This document shows, piece by piece, positions 4,939 to 23,118 of a DNA stretch of 64,000 bases. Under the pieces are notes generated by a model. The model searched no databases and was not told where the DNA came from. It worked only from the letters and a program-made list of their open reading frames with translations. The translations under genes and the position numbers were made by a program. Positions within the stretch are counted from its first letter, which is position 1, and every line of letters begins with the position of its first letter. The DNA comes from an uncultured Candidatus Saccharibacteria bacterium (GTDB lineage Bacteria > Patescibacteriota > Minisyncoccia > Phycocordibacterales > UBA9973), in NCBI GenBank assembly GCA_964553015.1, contig CAZKJE010000001.1, positions 94,278 to 158,277 of the forward strand, read 5' to 3'.

Positions 4939-5940
4939 TTACTTATTCTCTGCTGAATAATCCAAGCTCTGCATTATTACCATGCTCTTGTAGCTGTATT
5001 GATAGTTGGCAACGAATATTGCGCCGATAATGGCGATGACCGCAAAGCCGTTTGTAACCAGATCCATGTGATGTTCCCTTCTTTTTATAATTAGGTAAAG
5101 CAATAATGCAAAAGCAACAACAGAGAAAATAACTGCCAAGAACACGTTTGTCGTATTTCTAGGTGAAGCCAGAAGTTTCTGCCACAACGTAGGCTTTAAA
5201 TTTGTCTCATTATTTAATTCTGTTTTTATGACTTTTACAACCTCACTCGAAGTATCTGCTTCTGTCCTTTCAGAATTAGCTTCTGCCCCCAAAATATCAG
5301 CCGGTTTTGCAACTGCTACGGGAGCTTTTGGTGCAGGCGTTGGAACAGGTGTTTTTGGTGCGACTGCCACTGTCGGAGCTGGATTTGCATATACCTGCGC
5401 GACAAAAATTGTATTCCTGCCCTTATACATACCTTGGGCTATGCCAGTGCCCATCTCTGTATAATTTCCTTTGACTATATTTGCTTTATGAGTCGGACTG
5501 TTCAGCCACGCAATCGTCACGTCTTTGGAATCGCGAAAATTCACGGCGAGATTTTCTCCGGCATATTGATATTCGTAGCCTGCAAGTTCAATCCAATACC
5601 ATGGAGTTAGACCCTCGGGGCTCGTGTGCGCGAAATATCCCTTGGTGGCCATATCCTGCGCTTTCATTTCAGCTGCGTGGGTTAAAACCGGATTTACAGA
5701 AAGCACAGCGAGATTCTGCGACTGGCGTTCAGAATTTGTAAGTTGGTCTAATACTGCGGGCAATACAGCTGCCAGTCCGCCGGAAAGATTTATATTTGCG
5801 ATCGCAGGTATGAGAAAAGTAAAAATTTCCAAAAAGATAACGACGGCTACGATGTTACAAGTACTGCGATCGCGCAAGATGTGCGGACGATGATTATTTC
5901 CGGCATGCGGAATAAAATGCTTTTTGAGCCAAGAAAACAT
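4939..5940 (-). CDS. Membrane-anchored CAP/SCP/PR-1-like domain protein with Pro/Ala-rich linker
   Basis: N-terminal TM, then a CAP-like core (GYFAHTSPEG..YAGENLA..NSPTHKANI), then a PAPTVAVAPKTPVPTPAPKAP linker, then a C-terminal TM. Confidence 0.55.
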   Translation of the reverse strand: MFSWLKKHFIPHAGNNHRPHILRDRSTCNIVAVVIFLEIFTFLIPAIANINLSGGLAAVLPAVLDQLTNSERQSQNLAVLSVNPVLTHAAEMKAQDMATKGYFAHTSPEGLTPWYWIELAGYEYQYAGENLAVNFRDSKDVTIAWLNSPTHKANIVKGNYTEMGTGIAQGMYKGRNTIFVAQVYANPAPTVAVAPKTPVPTPAPKAPVAVAKPADILGAEANSERTEADTSSEVVKVIKTELNNETNLKPTLWQKLLASPRNTTNVFLAVIFSVVAFALLLYLIIKRREHHMDLVTNGFAVIAIIGAIFVANYQYSYKSMVIMQSLDYSAENK

Positions 5941-6008
5941 AATGATGCATTATAACGTACAAAAAACTACCTGTAAAGGTAGTTTTTTGCTTGAAATTAT
6001 TAATCAGG

Positions 6009-9000
6009 TTACTTATTTAACACCGCGCGCGTGAGAGGTCCTACGATTCCATCCCCTTTGAGTCCGCTCACAAGCTGAAACCTTACAACACAGGCTTTAG
6101 TTTTTGGACCAAACTTCCCATCCACAAGGCCGCATTCAAACCCTTTTGCATTCAAGAATTTCTGAAGTTCCATGACTTCATTCAGCACGGCCGCGCTGTA
6201 TGGAGGGCCCATCTTGAGGAAAAGAGTGAAGATGAATTTTGGAACAGTCTCCGCACCAAGAACTTCTCCTGAGACTGGGGCTAGAGGAGGTGTTATTGTG
6301 GGAGAAATTTTTCGTGACCCAGAGCTGCCACCGCCTGAACTAGGTTGTGGATTTATATCAGCAATAGTATCTGCTGTTGTGTTGAGCAAATTGTAATTGC
6401 CTGCGTCAGTTCCGGAAATTGAAATTCCAGTTACAGAAACAGGTTTAGCATTCCCAACGTCCGCATCTGCAAACGAGGCTGAAATATAAGATACAGTGAG
6501 CACATCTCCAGCCACGCGATCATCGGAGAGATCTACCGTCGCATCCGTATTTCCATCAAATGTTTTATTAACTCCTGTTGCTGTGACTGTAAGATCTTTT
6601 GCGGTAATATCCGCTGTGGTCATCACGGGAGAAGCTGTCGGAGTGTAATTTCCTAAGTCTGCGCCTGAGAGAGTAAAATTCGCTGTTACTGTTTTACCTA
6701 CTCCGACATTTTTATCAGAGAAAGTTGCGCCGGTGTTTGTAACCACAACGTCATCCCCCGAAATTTTATCGTCAGAAAGAACGACACTGGCAGTATTATT
6801 TCCATCGTAAACTTTATCTGAGGCGAGAGCTGTAATTGTCAAATCCTTTTCGGTAATTTCTCCCGTCGTATCTGTTACAAAAGTTATGGCGTAATTATCA
6901 GTTACATCATCCCCAGAAAAACTGTCCGTTATTATTCCCTCCGGTATCAAAGTCTTGCCGGTGCCGACATTTTTATTGTCATAAGTCTGTGTCCAGTCTT
7001 CTTCATCGCCCGAAGCTAGACTGCCTGAAGTGATGCTCGGAATTCCGGAAGAACTGTTTGTGCCGTCATACTCTTTTGTATCAGTAACGGCGGTAACCGT
7101 AATTGCTCTTTGAATTACATTTACAGTTCTAGTTACTTCAGTTGCCGCATTGCCTGCAGCGTCTGTAACATTATAGGTTACGGTGTAAGTGCCAAGAACA
7201 TCGGTATCAACAGGATCTACGGTAACTATCGAACCGGTAATGTCGCCATCATTGGTGTCAGAGGCTGTAGCTCCATCATCTGTATATGTTTCGCCATATT
7301 CAATATTAACAGGACTTGCGCCTAGCATTGTGATTACAGGGGCCACGCTGTCATAAGTAATTCCAAATTGCGTCGCGGCAGTATTGTTGTTTCCCGCTAG
7401 ATCTTGAACCTCGCTTGCATCAATATCCACCTTAATATCTCCCTGCCCGAGAGGAATAACACTTAGGCTGTAAACAGCACCAGATGTTGGTGTTAAAGAA
7501 AAGATACCACCGTTTTGAAGTTGAACATCTCCGCTGGTGAATCCTGTTACTGCCTCACTAAAGGTGATGGTAAAAAATATCGGGGAATCATTTGTCGGGT
7601 CACCACTTAATGATGAAATAACTACAGTGGGTGGAGTTGTATCCACGGTAAAGCTCGTAACTGCCAAGAGACTGCTTTCATTTCCGCTTCCGTCCGTAAC
7701 TTTTATAGTGCAGTTACTATAAACACCGTCTGCTAAAGGACCAAAAGTAATAGTGTTGGAGCCTGCTATTGCAGGTGGTAGAGCTAGTGCACAATCGCCC
7801 CCGACGGTAATCGCGCCTCCTTCGTCAGGTGAACTGAAAGTATAATCTGGCGTATCGTCATTGCCCGGAGTCGGCAACACGGGCGTAATTTCGGATAACA
7901 CAGGCGCCACGCCGTCGTCGGCCGTAACCATAGTTGGAGATACAGCCTGATTGCCTGCAAGATCTTTGAAGTTATCTATGTTTGTGAATGTTACGTCCGG
8001 TGTTTCCTCAGTCCCCATAATCGTTGAGAGTGTAAGTGTGACAACTCCTGTTCCTGTTTCGCTGGCTCCTGATACCGTGTGCCCAGCAACAGCAAACTCG
8101 CTTCCACTACCATTAACAGTGCTTCCATCCAGATCTTCACTGAAAGTTAGATCAATAGTCGTGGTAGAAGTAGTTTCTGCTGAAACAAAAGTCGGAGCAT
8201 TTGCATCAATCGCCAGAGTATTTGCTACTACTGTCGTGTATGCTGCGTTAGAATTTCCGTCTCCATCGTCAAGCACGACGCTCGCCGGAGTTGCTCCGGA
8301 AGCTCGATCAGTATTTCCTGATATTACAGTATAAGTAGCGGAATATAATCCTCCGCCGAGATCAGTGAAACTCAATGCATCAATCACTTCTCCATTCACA
8401 GTAATAGCATCTTCCAAGTATCCTGCTTGGTCGGACGTTATGTTTAAAGTAATTACATCGCCGATCTTTGCTGTTCCAGTTGATGGTGTGAATGATAATG
8501 AAGAAATAGATGGAGGAGTTATGTCTACAACTGTTGCTGCATATGTGAATGGCGTGCCAGCTACAAATGCCGTACATGTAACTTTTAAATCATCTTCACT
8601 ACAAACAACATCTGGGTTCGCATCCATGAGCGGAGCAAGAGCTGTAACAACTTCTGCAACACCATTGCCTGCAGCTGCGAGGTAATCATAATCAGTTCCA
8701 TTAATAGTTGCTCTGAAAGTTTCTCCGACCGAAACTGAGGCCGGAGTAAAGGTCACTTCTTGGGCAATTGCTGTTCTGTTTGTGGCGCTAGATGTCTGAA
8801 CAAATCCTGTTCCAGCAACTTTTGCGGTTAAGGTGATAACATTTCCGGCAACACTGGAAGTAAAATCTTGCGTAGCGTAATTTAGCGAAGCTTGAATGGC
8901 AGTGTTCAATCCAAGAGCTATATCGTCGTTAGTAGTATCGCCAGCTAAAACTGTATAACTTACATCGCCGTCAGTTGGCAGGGTTGCGGTGAATACATCA

Positions 9001-15264: not shown

Positions 15265-16296
15265 TTAAAATATTCTAGAGAAAAGCCTGATGACTGGAGA
15301 TAAAATATAATCCAGAAATTTTGGCTTGTAAGAGAGAGGGTCAAACAACACCGCTTCTTTTTTCCAGCCTTGTATTATTTCGGAGAGCTTGTCTACGGCA
15401 TTCTTGTTTTTAAAAAAAATTCCGACTTCTGAATTTAATTCAAAAGAGAGAAAGTCCAGATTGTGAGAGCCTACTATTCCTTCAACGCTGTCTATGATCA
15501 TAGCCTTTGCGTGATTCATCCGCGGCAAGAGAAAGAAATTTACCCCGAGCTTGGAGAGCTTGTACATAAAAAAATACACTATGCGGTCCGGCAAGTAATG
15601 ATTGCCCTTTTTGGGAACCAATACTTCGACTTTTACTCCGCGCAGTACTGCCTGGTGCAGCGCCCCGATAAACCAATGTTTCGGCATGAAATACGGAGTT
15701 ACAAAAATAATATTACTCTGCGCTTCGGCGATTTTACTTTTATAAAGTTTTTTTAAGGCGAATCTTTTACTGATTGGAAAATTTTCTATGAGCCAAGAAC
15801 GGGTTTTGGTTAAAAAAACTCTTTTGTTTTGAGCGAGTATAACCGGATCTTTTCCTCCGCATTCCGCATATACTTTGGCAAAAGAAGCAATGATAGCTAA
15901 AACGATTTTTCCTCTTACGCGGACGGCGAGATCGTCCCAGCGCCTCGCAACCTGATGAAAATTTACTCCGCCGATAAAAGCTACCTCTTCATCCACGACA
16001 AGAATTTTCCTGTGTATCCTATGCAAAAATCGGCTGAAGAAAAATATTTCTGCTCCGCTTTCGCGAAGTTCTTGGACTGCTTCTTTGCTTAAGTCAGAGC
16101 TGCCAAATGAATCCAGCACTACGCGAACCCGAAGCCCTTCTTTTGCTTTATTTGTGAGCAAGTTCAAAAAATCAAAACGCTTTACGTCGTCGTTGAAAAT
16201 ATACATTTCTAGATACACAGATTCTTTCGCAGCTTCTATGGCCTCAAACATAGCCTTCCAAGTGGAATAAGAACTGGCGAAAAATTTATACTGCAT
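15265..16296 (-). CDS. Phospholipase D-family protein (two HKD motifs; cardiolipin-synthase-like)
   Basis: HRKILVVDEEVAFIGGVNF and HAKAMIIDSVEGIVGSHNLD are two HxK(x4)D motifs. Start trimmed to MQYKFF (16296) because the longer ORF-track start at 16329 overlaps tRNA-Ala. Confidence 0.75.
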   Translation of the reverse strand: MQYKFFASSYSTWKAMFEAIEAAKESVYLEMYIFNDDVKRFDFLNLLTNKAKEGLRVRVVLDSFGSSDLSKEAVQELRESGAEIFFFSRFLHRIHRKILVVDEEVAFIGGVNFHQVARRWDDLAVRVRGKIVLAIIASFAKVYAECGGKDPVILAQNKRVFLTKTRSWLIENFPISKRFALKKLYKSKIAEAQSNIIFVTPYFMPKHWFIGALHQAVLRGVKVEVLVPKKGNHYLPDRIVYFFMYKLSKLGVNFFLLPRMNHAKAMIIDSVEGIVGSHNLDFLSFELNSEVGIFFKNKNAVDKLSEIIQGWKKEAVLFDPLSYKPKFLDYILSPVIRLFSRIF

Positions 16297-16301
16297 TGCA
16301 G

Positions 16302-16374
16302 TGGACCGTACAGGACTCGAACCTGCCACCCCCTCATTGCAAATGAGGTGCTCTACCAGATGAGCTAACGGCCC
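16302..16374 (-). tRNA. tRNA-Ala (anticodon TGC)
   Basis: Minus strand GGGCCGTTAGCTCATCTGGTAGAGCACCTCATTTGCAATGAGGGGGTGGCAGGTTCGAGTCCTGTACGGTCCA. G3:U70 Ala identity pair present, anticodon loop TTTGCAA. An upstream sigma70-like promoter TTGCAT-16nt-TAGAAT lies at forward 16386-16413. Confidence 0.85.
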
Positions 16375-16429
16375 ATAACAAAGATATTCTATCTTATTTC
16401 TCTAATAATGCAACTAGTTTTATGGCTAA

Positions 16430-16516
16430 AAACAAACCCCGCCCAAGACGAATCAAGAGCGGGGTTTGCGGCACTTATGTTGTTTACGATAAATGTAAGA
16501 TCACCCTTACACTCAC
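16430..16516 (-). ncRNA. Candidate small RNA (~87 nt) with its own promoter and intrinsic terminator, between rnpB and tRNA-Ala
   Basis: On the minus strand, TTGCAT (fwd 16546-16551) - 17 nt - TATACT (fwd 16523-16528) precedes GGGCUGUGAGUGUAAGGGUGAUCUUACAUUUAUCGUAAACAACAUAAGUGCCGC. That ends in hairpin CCCCGC-17nt-GCGGGG (fwd 16440-16467) plus UUUGUUUUU. No ATG in the transcript. Confidence 0.4.
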
Positions 16517-16573
16517 AGCCCGAGTATAGCATATATATAAAAATAATGCAAGTTTTTAGGGTTTAGTAACAGA

Positions 16574-16601
16574 AAAATCCTCTCTTTCAAGAGGATTTTT
16601 C
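16574..16601 (-). terminator. Intrinsic terminator of rnpB (aaaaatcctctctttcaagaggattttt)
   Basis: Perfect 9-bp stem plus U-tract immediately 3' of the RNase P RNA on the minus strand. Confidence 0.7.
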
Positions 16602-16611
16602 ATGTTTTGCC

Positions 16612-16950
16612 CTGTATTCTATAAGCCGAATTCTGTTTCATCACGCCGTAGCTTTCGCAGAGGCGGATAACGATAGCAATTTGTCTAGGCCCCAAATTAC
16701 TCGGGGGCTCAAGCGATTCTTCCCACTATGCATAAAGCTTCGCGGGACACGATCTTGCACAGGAGTAAGTATTTAGCCGTTTCACTCCGGATTCACCCCG
16801 CTAGGCGGGGCAAGCCGGCATCGTCTCTGTTCGCAACTCCACATCGCTATGGAAGGGCGTTACCCTTTACTTTTCCCATCCCTAAGGGACTCGCTGTGTT
16901 CGGACTTTCCTCTCCAGCTTGCGCCAGAGTAGCTATCAAAATACAGAACT
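16612..16950 (-). ncRNA. rnpB: RNase P RNA, bacterial type A (ribozyme subunit)
   Basis: Minus strand has GGAGAGGAAAGUCCGAAC (P4 5' strand, consensus AGGAAAGUCCGGGCUCC), GGUAACGCC, GCGAACAGAGACG, GAGUGAAACGGCU and 3' ACAGAAUUCGGCUUAUAG (P4 3' strand, consensus ACAGAAcCCGGCUUA). P1 pairs CUGUAUU/AAUACAG. The ORF-track entry 16728..16952 (+) falls inside this RNA and is spurious. Confidence 0.85.
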
Positions 16951-16973
16951 AAAGACAATGATACTATAAATTT

Positions 16974-17414
16974 TTAATATGTAAATAGCGCTTTGTCCCC
17001 AACTTTGAGATTATTTCTTTCAGAGAAACCTGACACAACCTCGAGGACATATTTTGCATTAACCTTCGGATCAAAAGTTTCCGGATAGGATTCCGGTCGA
17101 GCGTCTTTTTTAACATAAATTACTTTTTTATCCACGCTCAGCCATATAATATCTATCGGGAAATTCATATCCTTCATCCAGAAGACATACGGGCCCGGCT
17201 TTTCAAACACAAACAGCATGCCGGCGTTTTGGGCGAGACCCGTCCTGCCGGAGAGACCTTTTTCTTTTTCTGCATCACTTATAACCAGATCAACTTTTAT
17301 ATTCTGCCCCGCTATTTTTATTATTTTACTATTATCAATATTGACGACCGTCCAAAAGTGATAACATGCTGCAAGTAAAATAGCTGCAATAACAAAAGGC
17401 AAAATCTTTTTCAT
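16974..17414 (-). CDS. DUF192 (COG1430) family protein with N-terminal signal/TM
   Basis: 146 aa. GLSGRTGLAQNAGMLFVFEKPGPYVFWMKDMNFPIDIIWL matches the DUF192 core G.mgR..l....GMLF.f......FWMknt..plDiiF. Confidence 0.6.
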   Translation of the reverse strand: MKKILPFVIAAILLAACYHFWTVVNIDNSKIIKIAGQNIKVDLVISDAEKEKGLSGRTGLAQNAGMLFVFEKPGPYVFWMKDMNFPIDIIWLSVDKKVIYVKKDARPESYPETFDPKVNAKYVLEVVSGFSERNNLKVGDKALFTY

Positions 17415-18844
17415 TATAATTTTTTAGGGTCTCCGTTCCAGCCGAATATTTTGCCGAGATCGTCCGCGCTTTGCCTTTTGCGTGCAAGCTTTACTTCCCC
17501 GTTCTGGCACACAATCATGGCTGGTTTTGATAAGAGGCAGTGATTGTTGGAAAGGGTGTATTGATAGCTGCCGGTGTCATAGGCAACTACATACAAATCC
17601 GACATGTCTTCAGTTAATTTTGGCAATAGCACGTAATTGCCAGAAGCAGTATACCTGTCGTCAGCGTCGCAGGTAGATCCAGCGATCCAGACTTTCTGCA
17701 AGCGCTTAGTATTTAAATAATTCGCAGAAGTAAAATGCCATTTGCGGCGAACCACGGACCATGTGTCCGTCAGATTGCAGATAAAGCTTCCGTCAATAAA
17801 ATACCATTTTGTGTCAGCTTTGTTTGCAATATTCTTAGCGCCCAGTACTTTGAAAATAGATATTTGGGCCGGAGCAGTAAAATAGCTTCCCCACTCGCAG
17901 ATCAGGTTTGGATGCCTGATACCGAGCCGTTCGCTTTCCTTTTTGGCAGTTTTGATCATCTGGTTTACTAAATTTTTGACGGAAATCATCTTTTTTCTTT
18001 TTTCATAAGGTACTGCCATGCCGCCGCCGAAATTTATAGTATCCAAACCCGGATTGCTTTCTTTCAGCTTTGCATACAAAGGAAAAGCACGCTTGAGAGG
18101 CTTGATAAAGCCCTCTATTTTTTCGTTCTGGGTGGATATATGATAGTGCAGCATAGACAGATTGCGGATCTTGCCTATCTTCATTAGCTCTGTTTCGTCA
18201 AAACCAAAATGGTTGTACTTTTTATCCCAATGCGAATCTACCTTTACGTCGAGGTTTACCCGCACTCCTACTTCGCCTTTAAATTTTTTAAGCCTGTCTA
18301 ATTCTTCAGAGTTTTCAATAATCGGAATTACGATTAGTCCTTTGCCGCGCAGTTCTTCTATGAGGCTTATGTATTGGTCGGTTTTGGGGCCGTTGCAGGT
18401 AACTCGGAGCTTGCGATTAAATTTTTCCTGCTCCAGCATTCTTTTTACCAAAAAAAGCTCGTTTGCAGAAGATACTTCAATGTTGGCTCCTTCCGATAGC
18501 GCCGCCAGCACAAAATCGCGGTTCTGGTTGGACTTCATTACATAGTGATAATAAAATTTACCTTTATAATTTAGAATTTTTATGTAGGCATTAAAAAATT
18601 CCAACAGATCGCGAACTCGATGTTCCAGAATATAAGGAAAAAAAATCTCGGTGGTAGTGCCATACTTTCGGACAATATCCATAATATTATACTGATAGTG
18701 CCCTTCTTTTACGACAAGCTCGCCATTTGGATTCACGTCAAAATGCTGGGTGTTGAATTCATCCATGCCGAGCCTCCAAAATTTTTTCCAGTTCGCGTTG
18801 TTCTTTTTTGATTTCCTGGATTTTTTAGCTTTTGCCTTGACCAT
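17414..18844 (-). CDS. PLP-dependent decarboxylase, Orn/DAP/Arg decarboxylase family (fold III)
   Basis: 476 aa. YVMKSNQNRDFVLAAL matches Y[AV]vKaNsn..vl, and HYHISTQ matches the HfHiGSQ region. Could be arginine or carboxynorspermidine decarboxylase. N-terminal Lys-rich extension. Confidence 0.55.
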   Translation of the reverse strand: MVKAKAKKSRKSKKNNANWKKFWRLGMDEFNTQHFDVNPNGELVVKEGHYQYNIMDIVRKYGTTTEIFFPYILEHRVRDLLEFFNAYIKILNYKGKFYYHYVMKSNQNRDFVLAALSEGANIEVSSANELFLVKRMLEQEKFNRKLRVTCNGPKTDQYISLIEELRGKGLIVIPIIENSEELDRLKKFKGEVGVRVNLDVKVDSHWDKKYNHFGFDETELMKIGKIRNLSMLHYHISTQNEKIEGFIKPLKRAFPLYAKLKESNPGLDTINFGGGMAVPYEKRKKMISVKNLVNQMIKTAKKESERLGIRHPNLICEWGSYFTAPAQISIFKVLGAKNIANKADTKWYFIDGSFICNLTDTWSVVRRKWHFTSANYLNTKRLQKVWIAGSTCDADDRYTASGNYVLLPKLTEDMSDLYVVAYDTGSYQYTLSNNHCLLSKPAMIVCQNGEVKLARKRQSADDLGKIFGWNGDPKKL

Positions 18845-18909: not shown

Positions 18910-21900
18910 TTATAGAGTTATTTCAGATGCAGGCCGTTCAGGCTCTGAAGAGCCCTCAGGCTCGATGAGTTCAGGATCCGGCTCGGGTGTAGGTTCGGGA
19001 GCTGGCTCGAGGGCGGACTCTTCCACAACCTCACCTCCTCCTACCTCCTCCGAAGGAAGAGGTTCACTCACTTCACCCTCTCCTTCGGGGAGGGTTGGGG
19101 CAGGGTCTCCTTCTGGCGCGGGACTTGGCTCGGGTGTAGGTTCTGGGATTGGTTCAGGTGTAGGCTCCGGTTCTGGCTCGGTAGCTGGAACTGGGTCAGG
19201 CGTCATTCCCGCATTTTGCAACAGAGTTTGAAGCTGGTCTTCAGTCACGCAGGTTTCATTGATACAAAGTTTATTTTTAGCTTTAAAAGTTTCGGCGAAA
19301 ATTTCCCCTATGCCATTTGTAGCCTCCGAGAGCCAAGTGGAGATTTTGGCATAGATAGTATTGTTCAAATCTTGAATGGCCTTGGTGAGAATTGGAATCA
19401 TGCCGGTGGTGTTTAAAGACTTCATGCCGTTTTCGTCGGTAGCAACTAGTTTAGGAATAACGAGTTCTACTTCCTGGGCGATGAAGCCGAGATTTTTAAC
19501 TGTATCACCGTCTTCATATTTCCAGTTGAATAGGACGGGTCTTAGATTCATGACTGTGTCTAGACCATAAGTAATGTCTTCTATGTTTTTCTTCATTCTT
19601 TCGTCAGAAGTACAGGTGATGGTTCCTCCATCGGCTAGGGTACAGCCGGTAGCGTTGTCGCTGTTAAAGCGGGCGATGACTCCGGTGCCAGTGGCCAGGA
19701 CATCTAGGGCGTAGGTGGGATCTGATCTGCCGATGCCGACTCTTTTATTAGTAGAATCTACATTAAGAATGACAGTGGCATCTGTTTGTTGAACCTGAAA
19801 TGCAGTTGTGCTATTGGCACCTGGTTTAACTATTGTTGCCTTAGCCGCGTTATTTAATTTGCCAGCTTGAAGCATGATGTTACCGCCATATGACTTCAAA
19901 ATAACGTCATTATTCGGGAATGTTCCACTTTCTAGTCCTATATGAGCCACCCCTGAATTGTAGTTAATATAGCCAGGAAAAGTAGCATAACCATTGGCAT
20001 TAAGATTTAATGAACCATTATTCAGTATTTGTAAATCCGCTGAACTATTGCCCATAAAAGTGGCTATGGATGTACCATTTCCCAGTGAAGATTCTATAAG
20101 ATGCAGTGGGGCTGTTGGAGCTGTCGTGTTGATCCCCACTCTTCCCTCAAAATAGGCAGAGTTGGCTCGGGTGATGGTAGTGTTCGTTCCGGCAATTGGT
20201 TTAGGAACATATAACGAGAAAGCATCTGTAACCGTAATCGCATTCGTGGAAGCAAAAGTCGGAGCGCCGAAGCTGTTGGCGGTGCGGATGGCTACTGTTC
20301 CGGATGCTGCTGTGCTTGTGTCAGTATATGTGGCGGCATTTGAATCAAAAGCAATACCATCGGTGGTCCAAGCGGCAGCTGAAACATTGCCGTCAATTTG
20401 CAGATGAGAGGCGGGGGTGGCGGTGCCGATGCCGAGATTGCCATTATTCAAAATCGTCATTCTCTCGGTCAAAACTGAAGGAGCGGCGTCGGTGCCCGTC
20501 CAGAAAGAAAGTTGTCCCGGCACTCGGCTGTCGGCTATAGTGCCGGAAGAAATTGCTTTGATGGCTGCTCCCGTAATGTAGCCCGCGGCTCCTCCATAAC
20601 CTGTAAAGTTAATGACCCCCAGTTCATCAGCTGTGGTGATAACGGTAGGAGAAGCTCCGGTGCCTCTGGCTTTTCGGAAATTGAAGTCAAAACTGTCAGC
20701 GGAAGCGTTGGCTTGAGTAAAATATCCTTTTCCTAGGTCTACAGTATCGGAAGAGACGTGTAAAAGTCCTGCGGGTGCAGTGGTGCCGATGCCGACAGAA
20801 CCTTGTATTATTGCGCCGTTTGTTGGAGCAGCTGTAGCGGTGTAAGAGTTGCCTATTGAAACCCCACCGTTTACATTAAAGGCAGAGCCTGAATTAGTTG
20901 TTTTAATACTAACATTACCGCTTGCAGAGTCTGCAGATAATGCGGTGAGAGAGGGAGCCGCGCCTGCAGTACCATATAGAAGTTGGAAAAGACCGCCACC
21001 AGCATTGTCATTGGTTAATCGCCATCTGCTTCCACCAGTTTTACCGACTTCTATATATCCAGAGTTGCTCGATTCCACACGCAAACCGTCAACATTTCCG
21101 GTTAATATGTGCAGTTGAGAAGTTGGACTTGCCTTCCCAATCCCCACCTTTCCATCTCCCAAGACTGTAATCGCAGCTGTGTCGTCGTTGTTTGCAACTT
21201 GGAAAACCGTCTCTGCGGCACCCAAGTCAGCGATACCGGTGGTGCCGTTTGACTTAGCTCCGATAATTTTTATGGCAGGAGTAGCGTCAGTGGGATTAGT
21301 AGAACCCATCACACCTCTGATAGAGAGAGCTTGTGCATCGGTATCAGAAATAGTGGTCCACTGGACTCCTCCCTCTGTCGTTGAAAGAGATGTCAAATGT
21401 GAAAAGACATCAGTTTCTGCTAAAGTAGTTAGTCCATGTATTACATCATCATCGGACAAAGCAAAATCGGGAGTGGTGGTTGCTTCGTAAAGTTCTAATA
21501 TATAGTCGGGAGTAATGTCACCTATGCCGACGTTGCCCGTACTTGTATCCACATACAGATCATCCGTATTAACTGCAAAGTCTCCAGTGGTTGCAAGGGA
21601 AACATTTAAATTTGAGCCGGCAGCAGGAGTGATAGTGACTGCGCCAGTGGAAATGAGAGACGGAGTAGAAACTGAAGTAGGAGATAGAAGTTTAGTAGCG
21701 GACAAGGTGTCAGTCGCAAAGGTCAAGTCTGCATCGTCAGAAAGAATTCCAGCAACTCCGGCAAAAGTTACCCTCGTTGCAGTAAGTGCGGAATCAGTAA
21801 TATTTCCTCCGGATAAAGTCGTGTACGTGGCTGCGCCTAAGGCTGGGGTTACGAGAGCAGGCGAATTAGCAAAAACCAGCGCTCCCGTACCGGTTTCATC

Positions 21901-23118
21901 AGAAGCAGAAGTTAAAAGTTGCAAAGAAGTAATGGAACCCGTAGCTGTGCCATAGAGAGTACCGGAGGTTGGCAGAGTTACGTTCGTGGCGCCAGTTGAG
22001 GTAAGGGTAATGGAGTTTGTGGCAGAGGTGGCAAGAGTACTGCCTGCGCCCAGAGTAAGAGTACCGGTACCAGTCGTGATAGTGTTGCCGTTAATGGAAG
22101 CCGCGGTTAATGCTCCCCCTACTGTCAGGGCGTTAGTCGTATCATTGAAAGCAAAATTCGCATTGTCCTGCGCTAAATTTCCGGAAGCGTCCACGAAGAG
22201 GACAGAGTTAGCAGTACCGCTCCCGACTTCTCCGCCGATTTCCGGATTACCCACGTTCTTCCAGGTAGTGCCATTGTAAACCTGCATCTTGGAGACAGTG
22301 GTATTGAAAATGGTCATACCGGCTGCGGGAGTGAGCGCATCTCTCTGCGCCGTTGTTAAATTATTTATTTTTATGCCAGCATGGTTGGTACCGGAGAAGG
22401 AGATCAGTCCAGAAAAGGTGGTGGCTCCACCGACACCCAGACTGCCGGAGAGCGTAGTTATTCCCGTCACATCCAGATTGCCGGAGAGCGTAGTGGCTCC
22501 GGTGACGGACAAGGTTACCGTAGTCAGTAGGTCGGTATTCACTTGGTCACTAATAGAAGTGGATAAGCTGCTTAGACCATCCTCAATGGAATTTAAAAGT
22601 CCGTTGGTTTGATTATCAAAATCAGTTTGGGAGACGAAGGAAGAAGTGTCTGTACTGCTGCTGCTGCTTCCAGAGCTACCTGCTGGACCTCGGGGGCCAA
22701 CTGGGCCTTGCGGACCGGTATCTCCTTTGGGTCCTTGAGAGCCTTGGCTGTAAATTACATTCGCCGACTCCCTGCCGATGACTACCACAGGAGGGTTTTC
22801 GATTGGTATCGGAGGTGTATCGAATCCAGAAACTGTTCTTGGCGGAGTTTCTGGCGGAACAATTTGGAAAGTATTTCCATCCAGCAGAGAAGAAATTAGT
22901 CTTTGCAGACTGTCATTCATCGGCTCTACTATGCTGCTAGTGTAAAATTCCCAGGCATTTTCTGCCAGGTTAGCAGTCAAAGTAGAAGCTTTAACAGAGG
23001 CAGACTTGAGATCAAAATTAAAGTCAAACGCAGAAGCAGGATTAAATGCAGAAAAGAAAAATACCAACACAAAAAAGGATGGAAAAAGCGAACTTTTTAG
23101 AGAAGGTTTCTGGCGCAT
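18910..23118 (-). CDS. Giant secreted fibre protein (1402 aa): collagen-like Gly-X-Y triplets, long Thr/Gly/Ala-rich beta-repeat body, peptidase-S74 intramolecular-chaperone domain, Pro/Glu-rich tail
   Basis: Signal peptide. GSQGPKGDTGPQGPVGPRGPAGSSGSS is 9 consecutive GXY triplets. Near the C-terminus SDERMKKNIEDITYGLDTVMNLRPVLFNWKYEDG..LGFIAQEVELVIPKLV matches the S-D-x-R-x-K-x-N-I start of the Peptidase_S74 domain. Final tail PEPEPTPEPIPEPTPEPSP. Confidence 0.8.
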   Translation of the reverse strand: MRQKPSLKSSLFPSFFVLVFFFSAFNPASAFDFNFDLKSASVKASTLTANLAENAWEFYTSSIVEPMNDSLQRLISSLLDGNTFQIVPPETPPRTVSGFDTPPIPIENPPVVVIGRESANVIYSQGSQGPKGDTGPQGPVGPRGPAGSSGSSSSSTDTSSFVSQTDFDNQTNGLLNSIEDGLSSLSTSISDQVNTDLLTTVTLSVTGATTLSGNLDVTGITTLSGSLGVGGATTFSGLISFSGTNHAGIKINNLTTAQRDALTPAAGMTIFNTTVSKMQVYNGTTWKNVGNPEIGGEVGSGTANSVLFVDASGNLAQDNANFAFNDTTNALTVGGALTAASINGNTITTGTGTLTLGAGSTLATSATNSITLTSTGATNVTLPTSGTLYGTATGSITSLQLLTSASDETGTGALVFANSPALVTPALGAATYTTLSGGNITDSALTATRVTFAGVAGILSDDADLTFATDTLSATKLLSPTSVSTPSLISTGAVTITPAAGSNLNVSLATTGDFAVNTDDLYVDTSTGNVGIGDITPDYILELYEATTTPDFALSDDDVIHGLTTLAETDVFSHLTSLSTTEGGVQWTTISDTDAQALSIRGVMGSTNPTDATPAIKIIGAKSNGTTGIADLGAAETVFQVANNDDTAAITVLGDGKVGIGKASPTSQLHILTGNVDGLRVESSNSGYIEVGKTGGSRWRLTNDNAGGGLFQLLYGTAGAAPSLTALSADSASGNVSIKTTNSGSAFNVNGGVSIGNSYTATAAPTNGAIIQGSVGIGTTAPAGLLHVSSDTVDLGKGYFTQANASADSFDFNFRKARGTGASPTVITTADELGVINFTGYGGAAGYITGAAIKAISSGTIADSRVPGQLSFWTGTDAAPSVLTERMTILNNGNLGIGTATPASHLQIDGNVSAAAWTTDGIAFDSNAATYTDTSTAASGTVAIRTANSFGAPTFASTNAITVTDAFSLYVPKPIAGTNTTITRANSAYFEGRVGINTTAPTAPLHLIESSLGNGTSIATFMGNSSADLQILNNGSLNLNANGYATFPGYINYNSGVAHIGLESGTFPNNDVILKSYGGNIMLQAGKLNNAAKATIVKPGANSTTAFQVQQTDATVILNVDSTNKRVGIGRSDPTYALDVLATGTGVIARFNSDNATGCTLADGGTITCTSDERMKKNIEDITYGLDTVMNLRPVLFNWKYEDGDTVKNLGFIAQEVELVIPKLVATDENGMKSLNTTGMIPILTKAIQDLNNTIYAKISTWLSEATNGIGEIFAETFKAKNKLCINETCVTEDQLQTLLQNAGMTPDPVPATEPEPEPTPEPIPEPTPEPSPAPEGDPAPTLPEGEGEVSEPLPSEEVGGGEVVEESALEPAPEPTPEPDPELIEPEGSSEPERPASEITL

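Follow-up and report, generated by a model that had tools for sequence, protein, structure and literature searches.

What is encoded by the short stretch between rnpB, the gene for the RNA of RNase P, and a tRNA-Ala gene on contig CAZKJE010000001.1 (assembly GCA_964553015.1)? The locus lies on the minus strand of the 64,000-nt stretch of that contig which we analysed and refer to as the window. It comes from an uncultured bacterium of the candidate phyla radiation (CPR, Patescibacteria), a group with very small genomes and few recognisable regulators that is not routinely cultured. To our knowledge, almost no regulatory RNA has been experimentally characterised in these bacteria. An earlier reading of the letters of the sequence (the original prediction) had proposed a locus of three stable-RNA genes, namely rnpB, a candidate small RNA (sRNA) and tRNA-Ala, with promoter-like and/or terminator elements of their own; all three were found at, or within a few bases of, the positions it gave. 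Our analysis indicates that the middle element, 16516-16428 on the minus strand, is very probably an independent non-coding RNA gene of some 88 nt, and that it appears to represent an uncatalogued family of a Parcubacteria/Paceibacteria (Nomurabacteria-type) clade of the CPR. The family is absent from Rfam 15 and appears to be new: a familiar kind of gene with an unusual attachment to rnpB.

Identification and distribution of the family

A gene for a pyridoxal-phosphate-dependent decarboxylase of 476 residues adjoins the locus, and 24 related loci were fetched through it from GTDB representative genomes. These are metagenome-assembled genomes labelled Candidatus Nomurabacteria, Paceibacterota, Minisyncoccia or Parcubacteria; some of the labels look wrong for the clade. 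When the locus was compared with them by BLAST, the segment from the -35 box of the sRNA to just before its terminator stem proved to be conserved in 15 of the 24, with 73-88% identity. The terminator stem differs in sequence among these 15 relatives and its hairpin is always present. In four of the 15 genomes rnpB is found on the opposite strand, while the orientation of the sRNA unit relative to the protein genes is unchanged.

A covariance model, R1, was built from 16 genome sequences that had been located by synteny and not by pattern. In the window it gives a single strong match (16430-16516, 81.6 bits, E 3e-17). Each locus likewise contains exactly one strong match, scoring 63-103 bits, with a divergent copy at L011 scoring 34.7 bits; the other matches are bare terminators of at most 24 bits. 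The sRNA is thus single-copy in the sequence examined. Metagenome contigs from JGI/ENA were scanned with a pattern taken from the transcribed part only, GTGAGTG-N20-50-AACWAYRTANGTGCCRCAAA. At least 120 contigs carry it, and all counts over metagenome loci given below refer to these listed matches. Genome loci, metagenome loci and the window together supply at least 121 distinct sRNA sequences (118 with a stricter pattern and without the window). All of them share one build, consisting of promoter, GUGAGUG, hairpin, linker, a GC-rich hairpin (the loop often GNRA or UUCG) and, in essentially every member, UUUUGUUU. The IMG/VR viral contigs contain no match to the pattern, and a phage origin was rejected on that ground.

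The arrangement reaches beyond close relatives. At L146, where DUF192 is 54% identical, the order ArgDC-DUF192-rnpB (opposite)-sRNA-agmatinase is complete. At L148 (DUF192 55% identical) synteny is rearranged and neither rnpB nor the sRNA is nearby.

Promoter and transcribed unit

The 45 nt upstream of GUGAGUG lie outside the search pattern and were compared across 118 distinct sequences. At least 92% of them have TTGC at -35 to -32, and the same holds for TATG (-17 to -14) and for TATACT (-12 to -7). The T-rich spacer is mostly kept, and positions -6 to -1 vary. An extended -10 promoter that works from one fixed start site would show this pattern. Since the search did not constrain the promoter, its conservation is strong evidence that the sRNA unit is transcribed on its own. 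The original prediction had called TTGCAT-17-TATACT a textbook promoter. Its elements are present and family conservation makes them credible, but the description as textbook does not hold: TTGCAT agrees with TTGACA at only three of six positions, and a generic promoter scan therefore misses this promoter as well as that of tRNA-Ala.

The claim that the transcript has no start codon needs a similar adjustment. A 47-residue open reading frame (ORF) beginning with ATG (16532-16389) does overlap the sRNA. Its first codon lies within the promoter, ahead of the inferred start of transcription, and the frame is not conserved; insertions and deletions in the family argue against any conserved frame. 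A small protein gene was in fact excluded by the 1-nt insertions and deletions in the linker and by the varying hairpin lengths. At L002 the frame reads GUG AGU GUG AGG UAA and stops after four codons.

In the window, the internal hairpin, the CCCCGC/GCGGGG terminator and the U-tract were all present as the original prediction had described them. A 96-nt stretch containing the sRNA has a folding energy of -38.4 kcal/mol in RNAfold, against -22.3 +/- 3.1 kcal/mol for shuffled sequences (z = -5.2), and none of 200 shuffles was as stable. RNAfold lengthens the first hairpin, P1, with G.U pairs (GUGAGU/AUUUAU). We rejected this extension as unsupported, since its 3' side varies (AUUAAU, AUAAAU, AUUAUU) and its 5' side is invariant.

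Conserved structure and linker

Structure statistics were taken from alignment A4, in which 100 distinct sequences are aligned to the covariance model. Such an alignment is fitted to the model and leans towards its structure; RNAalifold was therefore run on A4 as well. Standard pairs fill 96.2% of the pair cells; their share is 81.3 +/- 0.5% after columns are shuffled and no higher than 70% after partners are shifted by 1-3 columns. Changes on both sides are seen at 13 of the 18 pairs. The terminator has such changes at 10 of its 11 pairs, with 98.2% of cells paired. One pair of P1 occurs as GC 47, AU 30 and GU 23 times, several others toggle between Watson-Crick and G.U, and insertions that lengthen P1 arrive as complementary pairs (for example GUGUGAGGU...ACCUCGCAU). 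Across the family P1 has 6-9 bp and carries RAGG at its apex. RNAalifold returned the P1 and terminator helices only and left the linker unpaired. On the opposite strand the many G.U pairs would turn into C.A, which favours the minus strand as the one transcribed. Conservation and covariation in related genomes had been proposed as a check by the original prediction; the sRNA is conserved and both helices covary.

Outside the helices, three parts vary little or not at all in the 16 sequences found by synteny: the 5' GUGAGUG, the RAGG at the apex of P1 and the linker AUCG-UAAACAACAUAAGUGCCGCAAA. Across the family the linker is about 25-30 nt long, C/A-rich and nearly invariant (UUUAUCG-UAAACAACAUAAGUGCCGCAAAA). 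Some 45 unpaired nt hardly change even between loci whose rnpB genes diverge by as much as about 35%, and this part of the sRNA is more conserved than most of the adjacent RNase P RNA. Between AUCG and AACAAC the linker has 1-nt insertions and deletions, reading UAAC, UAAAC, UAAAAC, UUAAAC or none, and one subgroup has the duplication UCGUAGUCGUAGAC. By these insertions and deletions the linker is split in two, a short AUCG module and AACAACAUAAGUGCCGCAAA, a module of 20 nt. In the main linker variant CAAUGUAUG takes the place of CAACAUAAG, through C-to-U and A-to-G transitions and one transversion. It is suggestive only that these transitions would keep pairing to G and U on a partner strand.

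Two subfamilies stand out. One (L010, L029, L040, L073, L092, L095, L099, L101) has a P1 about 4 bp longer with a conserved loop containing CUGACG. The linker of the other (L009, L038, L058, L082) carries an insertion with a duplication, UCGUAG(UCGUAG)AC.

Linkage to the RNase P RNA gene

The original prediction had called rnpB from its signatures, and the call was borne out. RF00010 matches the window with 91.6 bits (E 2.2e-28) over model positions 1-367, the complete model, in a scan by E-value threshold, and both strands of P4 are intact (GAGGAAAGUCCG and ACAGAAUUCGGCUUA). The part of the model holding P13/P14 is almost empty. The score is below the RF00010 gathering score of 100, a point not raised by the original prediction, and the gene is thus absent from the default, gathering-mode scan; orthologues in relatives score 84.7-119.8 bits. 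For circularised CPR genomes, lowered Infernal thresholds were needed to reveal RNase P RNAs, many of which lack P13, P14, P16 and P17 (Lui et al. 2021, PMC8172020). Our assignment relies on this precedent of sub-threshold scores for CPR RNase P RNAs without P13/P14 (PMC8172020), and by its sequence features the gene is to be taken as a genuine rnpB despite its score. The -10 element of the rnpB promoter-like site ends 9-10 nt before the start of the RF00010 match. The terminator arm GAGAGGATTTTTC recurs in the relatives inspected. The terminator palindrome has A- and U-tracts on both sides and could act bidirectionally. Many of the relatives inspected retain the terminator sequence AAAAAUCC(U/C)CU...AGAGGAUUUUU itself, which is unusual for a terminator.

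In all loci rnpB was located with nhmmer, and a locus was counted as informative when it had at least 500 nt of upstream sequence or a detectable rnpB. Among the matches listed, rnpB lies directly upstream of the sRNA promoter, at a distance of 57-230 nt, in 116 of 123 informative loci (94%). These loci had been found through the sRNA sequence alone. Such linkage was beyond the reach of the original prediction, which was made from one sequence. The two genes have the same orientation in 66 loci and opposite orientations in 50 (L002, L007, L010, L024 and 46 metagenome loci); rnpB is never downstream. Between DUF192 and the sRNA gene, the rnpB unit (promoter, gene and palindromic terminator) is found either way round. 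On a tree of rnpB similarity the two orientations are intermingled: in 71 of 88 cases the nearest neighbour has the same orientation, and both orientations occur within clusters drawn at 20% distance. This suggests that rnpB may have flipped repeatedly and in place. We did not observe flanking inverted repeats that would explain the flips, other than rnpB's own P1 arms and the terminator palindromes. L057, the sole opposite locus read base by base, has overlapping back-to-back promoters, with the -35 box of rnpB inside the spacer of the sRNA promoter. Upstream, DUF192 is conserved in 73 loci, always on the strand of the sRNA, and the decarboxylase in 67 loci. At least six loci have the sRNA without a nearby rnpB, as in the order tRNA-Tyr-sRNA-agmatinase.

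A further feature of the promoter region is an inverted copy of the -35 box, found in the spacer of many sRNA promoters as CTTGCA-N8-TGCAAG (L048, L095, L057; window 16529-16552). At L057, where rnpB is opposite, the divergent rnpB promoter has this inverted copy for its -35 box. A similar spacer is present in loci of the same orientation (L013 shares that of L007), and the motif could be an operator for a dimeric regulator.

The L002 locus (5900-6420, compared with 16430-16950 of the window) is also distinct. Its decarboxylase is 96% identical to that of the window, yet rnpB is inverted. Its sRNA (66 bits, linker ACAUAUAACAAUAUAUGUGCC) is far more divergent than that of L003, where the decarboxylase is only 90% identical. 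On these comparisons the locus looks mosaic or recombined.

Comparison with known RNAs

Searched against Rfam 15, the sRNA gave nothing at gathering score in the window or at 16 other loci, and literature searches found no published description of it. The Rfam scan, one of the checks named by the original prediction, recovered rnpB and tRNA-Ala, with nothing reaching threshold for the sRNA. A known RNA family was rejected, as Rfam 15 stayed below threshold throughout and ARAGORN reported no tmRNA. The original prediction had seen no likeness to the signal recognition particle (SRP) RNA, 6S or tmRNA, and in this it was right: in the sRNA region RF00169, RF00013 and tmRNA have no match at E values up to 10. 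The sRNA resembles the housekeeping 4.5S/SRP, 6S and tmRNA genes in being single-copy, in its strongly conserved promoter and in its position among stable-RNA genes. In contrast to them it has neither the internal loops of SRP domain IV nor the central bubble of 6S, is at most half the size of 6S and consists of two plain helices.

The best weak match is the rnk leader of Pseudomonas (RF01772), with 25.7-38.8 bits on three members (window 25.7), far under the gathering score of 55. The matches span the upstream promoter region and the terminator. The RF01772 model is similar in being about 108 nt long and terminator-ended, but it describes a cis-acting leader of an unrelated gammaproteobacterial gene.

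In its anatomy the sRNA is closest to trans-encoded sRNAs such as Spot 42, RyhB, GcvB and the CA-motif RNA CrcZ. Like these, it is a stand-alone gene of about 90 nt with a sigma-70-type promoter, a 5' hairpin, an unstructured segment and a Rho-independent terminator. Its conserved segment is C/A-rich (AAACAACAUAA). It differs from these sRNAs in having no sequence or Rfam relationship to them, in its reduced-genome CPR host and in the unusual length, about 45 nt, of its invariant part. We know of no counterpart among sRNAs of the Spot 42/RyhB/GcvB/CrcZ type to the tight linkage with rnpB.

Some short resemblances were also noted. The linker AAGUGCC(G/A)CAAAA and a variable hairpin resemble the consensus P11/J11-12 (AAGUGCCACAGAAAA) and P12 of class-A RNase P RNA. 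The resemblance covers 12-13 nt only, mismatches the clade's own rnpB (GUUGCGAACAGAGA) and is accompanied by no second RF00010 match; it is probably due to chance. The same is probable for resemblances to the 16S 3' region (AAGUCGUAACAAGG), the 16S 5' region (UAACACAUGCAAGUCG) and the resume-codon region of tmRNA.

Searches for targets and partners

Complementary sites for the linker were sought on both strands of the window, where none is outstanding; the best has 13 nt with one G.U and lies inside a gene for an MFS transporter. About 1 Mb of related loci holds 226 sites of 11 nt or more for the linker; shuffled linkers have 308 +/- 152, and there is thus no enrichment. Against neighbouring translation starts, taken by gene cluster, real and shuffled linkers are mostly within 1-2 kcal/mol of each other. 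The largest gap in these start regions is about 3 kcal/mol, in a cluster of only five genes. The sRNA showed nothing clearly beyond the shuffled range with tRNAs. For 95 pairs of sRNA and rnpB, the duplexes predicted by RNAduplex were weak in energy and scattered in position, and in an aligned 7-mer scan any site for the linker is shared by at most 12% of the sequences. The same scan found the 5' tail of the sRNA to be complementary to the rnpB strand CUUAC in about 40%. This pairing was set aside as uninformative, since in the Rfam alignment CUUAC forms the 3' side of P7, and neither partner varies. A match of the linker to the codons for 'GMLFVF' in DUF192 was also dropped; it reaches 11 nt or more in only three loci.

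Possible functions

We tentatively favour a trans-acting, base-pairing riboregulator, at best an evenly balanced choice. The sRNA would act in trans, with the invariant single-stranded linker as its functional surface. The likeliest mode would be antisense pairing with a conserved RNA target encoded elsewhere, as in terminator-ended bacterial riboregulators. This choice follows from the anatomy: the gene is independent, and its RNA has a small hairpin at the 5' end, a long conserved stretch that is accessible, and a U-tailed terminator. The adjacency to rnpB would then be mainly inherited synteny of two stable-RNA genes in an ArgDC-DUF192-rnpB-sRNA block, and no proof of shared function. Several points weigh against antisense pairing. 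The roughly 45 nt of invariant unpaired sequence exceed what an antisense seed typically needs and fit a protein or ribonucleoprotein partner equally well. Insertions in the middle of the linker are tolerated, so that a continuous seed would occupy at most the 3' 20 nt. The 94% linkage to rnpB is left unexplained by trans action. Finally, no complementary target was found in the window, the 1 Mb of related loci, the start regions, the tRNAs or rnpB; these searches cover a small part of any one genome, and the argument from them is accordingly weak.

The excess of invariant sequence over the needs of a seed, together with the absence of complementary targets from the searches made, leads to the idea of an RNA that binds or sequesters a protein. 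The linker with the 5' GUGAGUG and RAGG would be the platform for a conserved protein, and the RNA a scaffold or a sponge. Candidates for the protein are an RNA chaperone that reads the AAC-AAC tract (ARN-like, CA-motif-like) and the U-tailed terminator, or a housekeeping factor. The strong conserved promoter, which suggests abundant constitutive expression, would suit such a role. We nevertheless consider it rather doubtful. No partner candidate was identified and none is conserved beside the sRNA gene; DUF192 is an unlikely RNA binder, having an apparent N-terminal hydrophobic segment and JGI homologues labelled 'uncharacterized membrane protein'. Known sponge RNAs have several CA motifs each, and the sRNA has one CA-like motif only. 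The linkage in turn could mean that the sRNA is a dedicated partner of the clade's reduced RNase P. This partner could be a substrate or decoy, a second RNA component or accessory that makes up for a specificity domain reduced by the lack of P13/P14, or a regulator of rnpB/rnpA expression that balances RNase P RNA with protein or tRNA supply. If co-expression from adjacent promoters were under selection, this would account for the two genes having stayed neighbours in 116 of the 123 informative loci through many flips of rnpB, and the overlapping promoters of L057 and the loss of most of P13/P14 from the clade's rnpB (PMC8172020) are in keeping with it. However, the whole ArgDC-DUF192-rnpB-sRNA block is syntenic and the adjacency may be inherited, the sRNA exists without a nearby rnpB in the loci mentioned, and rnpB alone covers all core positions of the model. 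The linker has no conserved complementarity to rnpB, and the match of the 5' tail falls on the P7 strand. We judge a role in RNase P biology to be quite unlikely.

The downstream gene is usually on the same strand and often begins about 100 nt after the sRNA start, and in some loci it is agmatinase, a polyamine gene, 40-110 nt downstream. The element could therefore be a cis-acting 5' leader or attenuator, with the short RNA as its by-product. This seems very improbable: the downstream genes have unrelated functions and are not the same even in close relatives, and in most cases inspected, including most agmatinase loci, they have their own -10 box before the start codon. In addition the terminator sequence is free to vary while the linker is fixed, and no conserved anti-terminator pairing is then possible. 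That the element is no gene at all is scarcely credible to us. It would be a read-through tail of rnpB, a chance hairpin or a short ORF, and the 47-residue ORF and the position 90 nt downstream of rnpB in the window are compatible with this. Its own conserved promoter, the stability of its fold and the covariation in both helices speak against it. Read-through from rnpB into a tandem terminator had been named as an alternative in the original prediction. It is excluded by the conserved sRNA promoter and by the 50 loci in which rnpB is opposite and the sRNA unit unchanged.

It is likely that the sRNA does something central in the clade, since it is single-copy at every locus examined, its promoter is apparently strong and its unpaired part is conserved. 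The family, now described by a covariance model with exact boundaries and counting over 120 members, lends itself to searches of metatranscriptomes and to comparative prediction of targets. That the sRNA gene is linked to an rnpB which has apparently been inverted many times offers a concrete, testable hypothesis on RNase P biology in reduced genomes. Even if the sRNA is an ordinary riboregulator, annotating it would be of use across a large uncultured group of bacteria, and the family would gain greatly in importance should it be shown to be linked to RNase P or to a core process of these minimal bacteria.

Features of the locus and neighbouring genes

Table 1 Features of the locus, in their order on the minus strand from 17414 to 16290 (end of the DUF192 gene, rnpB, sRNA, tRNA-Ala, PLD-family gene)
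Feature	Position	Strand	Basis or remark
DUF192 gene	17414-16974	-	Pfam PF02643
rnpB promoter-like site TTTACA-16-TATCAT	16985-16958	-	promoter scan, 10/12 matches
rnpB	16948-16606	-	RF00010 match; bacterial class A, reduced form
rnpB intrinsic terminator	16601-16572	-	12-bp inverted repeat GAAAAATCCTCT/AGAGGATTTTTC
sRNA -35 box TTGCAT	16551-16546	-	read from sequence
sRNA promoter spacer, 17 nt	between 16546 and 16528	-	
sRNA extended -10 TGcTATACT	16531-16523 (TATACT 16528-16523)	-	
Gap from sRNA -10 box to inferred start, 6 nt		-	
sRNA gene, ~87-89 nt	~16516-16428	-	covariance model, fold, family alignment
sRNA 5' tail GUGAG	16516-16512	-	G16516 is the inferred start of GUGAGUG
sRNA hairpin P1 UGUAAGG/UCUUACA, loop GUGA	16511-16494	-	7 bp including one G.U
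sRNA single-stranded linker UUUAUCGUAAACAACAUAAGUGCC	16493-16470	-	conserved, unpaired
sRNA terminator hairpin, 13-bp stem around CCCCGC/GCGGGG	16469-16432	-	
sRNA U-tract end	16428	-	
tRNA-Ala promoter-like site TTGCAT, 16-nt spacer, TAGAAT	16413-16408 and 16391-16386	-	read from sequence
tRNA-Ala(UGC)	16374-16302	-	Rfam tRNA 63.6 bits; ARAGORN

The window has a G+C content of about 42%, and an Rfam scan of its whole length in gathering mode gave three tRNAs and nothing else. The tRNA-Ala gene is well above the RF00005 threshold of 29 bits. The second promoter proposed by the original prediction, TTGCAT-16-TAGAAT ahead of tRNA-Ala, is present; its -35 is of the same type as that of the conserved sRNA promoter and its -10 ends 11 nt before the 5' end of the tRNA. 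The gene encodes no CCA end. Both rnpB and tRNA-Ala are ordinary genes for the phylum. A hairpin, ACTGCAATGCAGT, with a T-run lies directly 3' of tRNA-Ala (16290-16302) and overlaps the ATG of the PLD-family gene (16296).

The genes downstream of the sRNA vary among the loci and include MltG-like, UvrB, ClpB-like, agmatinase, glutamine synthetase (GlnA), PLD and tRNA-Ala; the protein names were read from cluster sequences and have Pfam support only for PLD and agmatinase. In about 20 of 136 loci a tRNA-Ala(UGC) gene follows the sRNA at a distance of up to 1.5 kb. Between the sRNA terminator and the next gene, a separate -10 box is present in most of the sequences inspected (genome and agmatinase loci). 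The U-tract of the sRNA often runs into TTGAC or TTGCA, the -35 box of the next gene (window 16428-16440; L004, L006, L007, L009, L013, L015), which reads as a very compact overlap of terminator and promoter. The agmatinase genes of L146 (5010-5046), L069, L123 and L130 have -10 boxes (TATTCT, TATAAT, TACAAT) mostly 6-8 nt before the ATG and no Shine-Dalgarno sequence, implying leaderless mRNAs in these CPR bacteria.

At L146 (2563-6971) the RNA genes stand within an apparent polyamine cluster of arginine/ornithine decarboxylase, DUF192, rnpB, sRNA and agmatinase (Arginase family), with a gene resembling deoxyhypusine synthase on the other strand. In the window, beside the cluster at 16974-18844, tRNA-Ala and the PLD-family gene take the place of agmatinase and the deoxyhypusine-synthase-like gene. 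Further upstream on the minus strand, at 18910-23118, an ORF of 1402 residues encodes, close to the C-terminal end, the endosialidase chaperone domain Peptidase_S74, which is typically seen in tail-fibre proteins of phages and here is found beside housekeeping genes.

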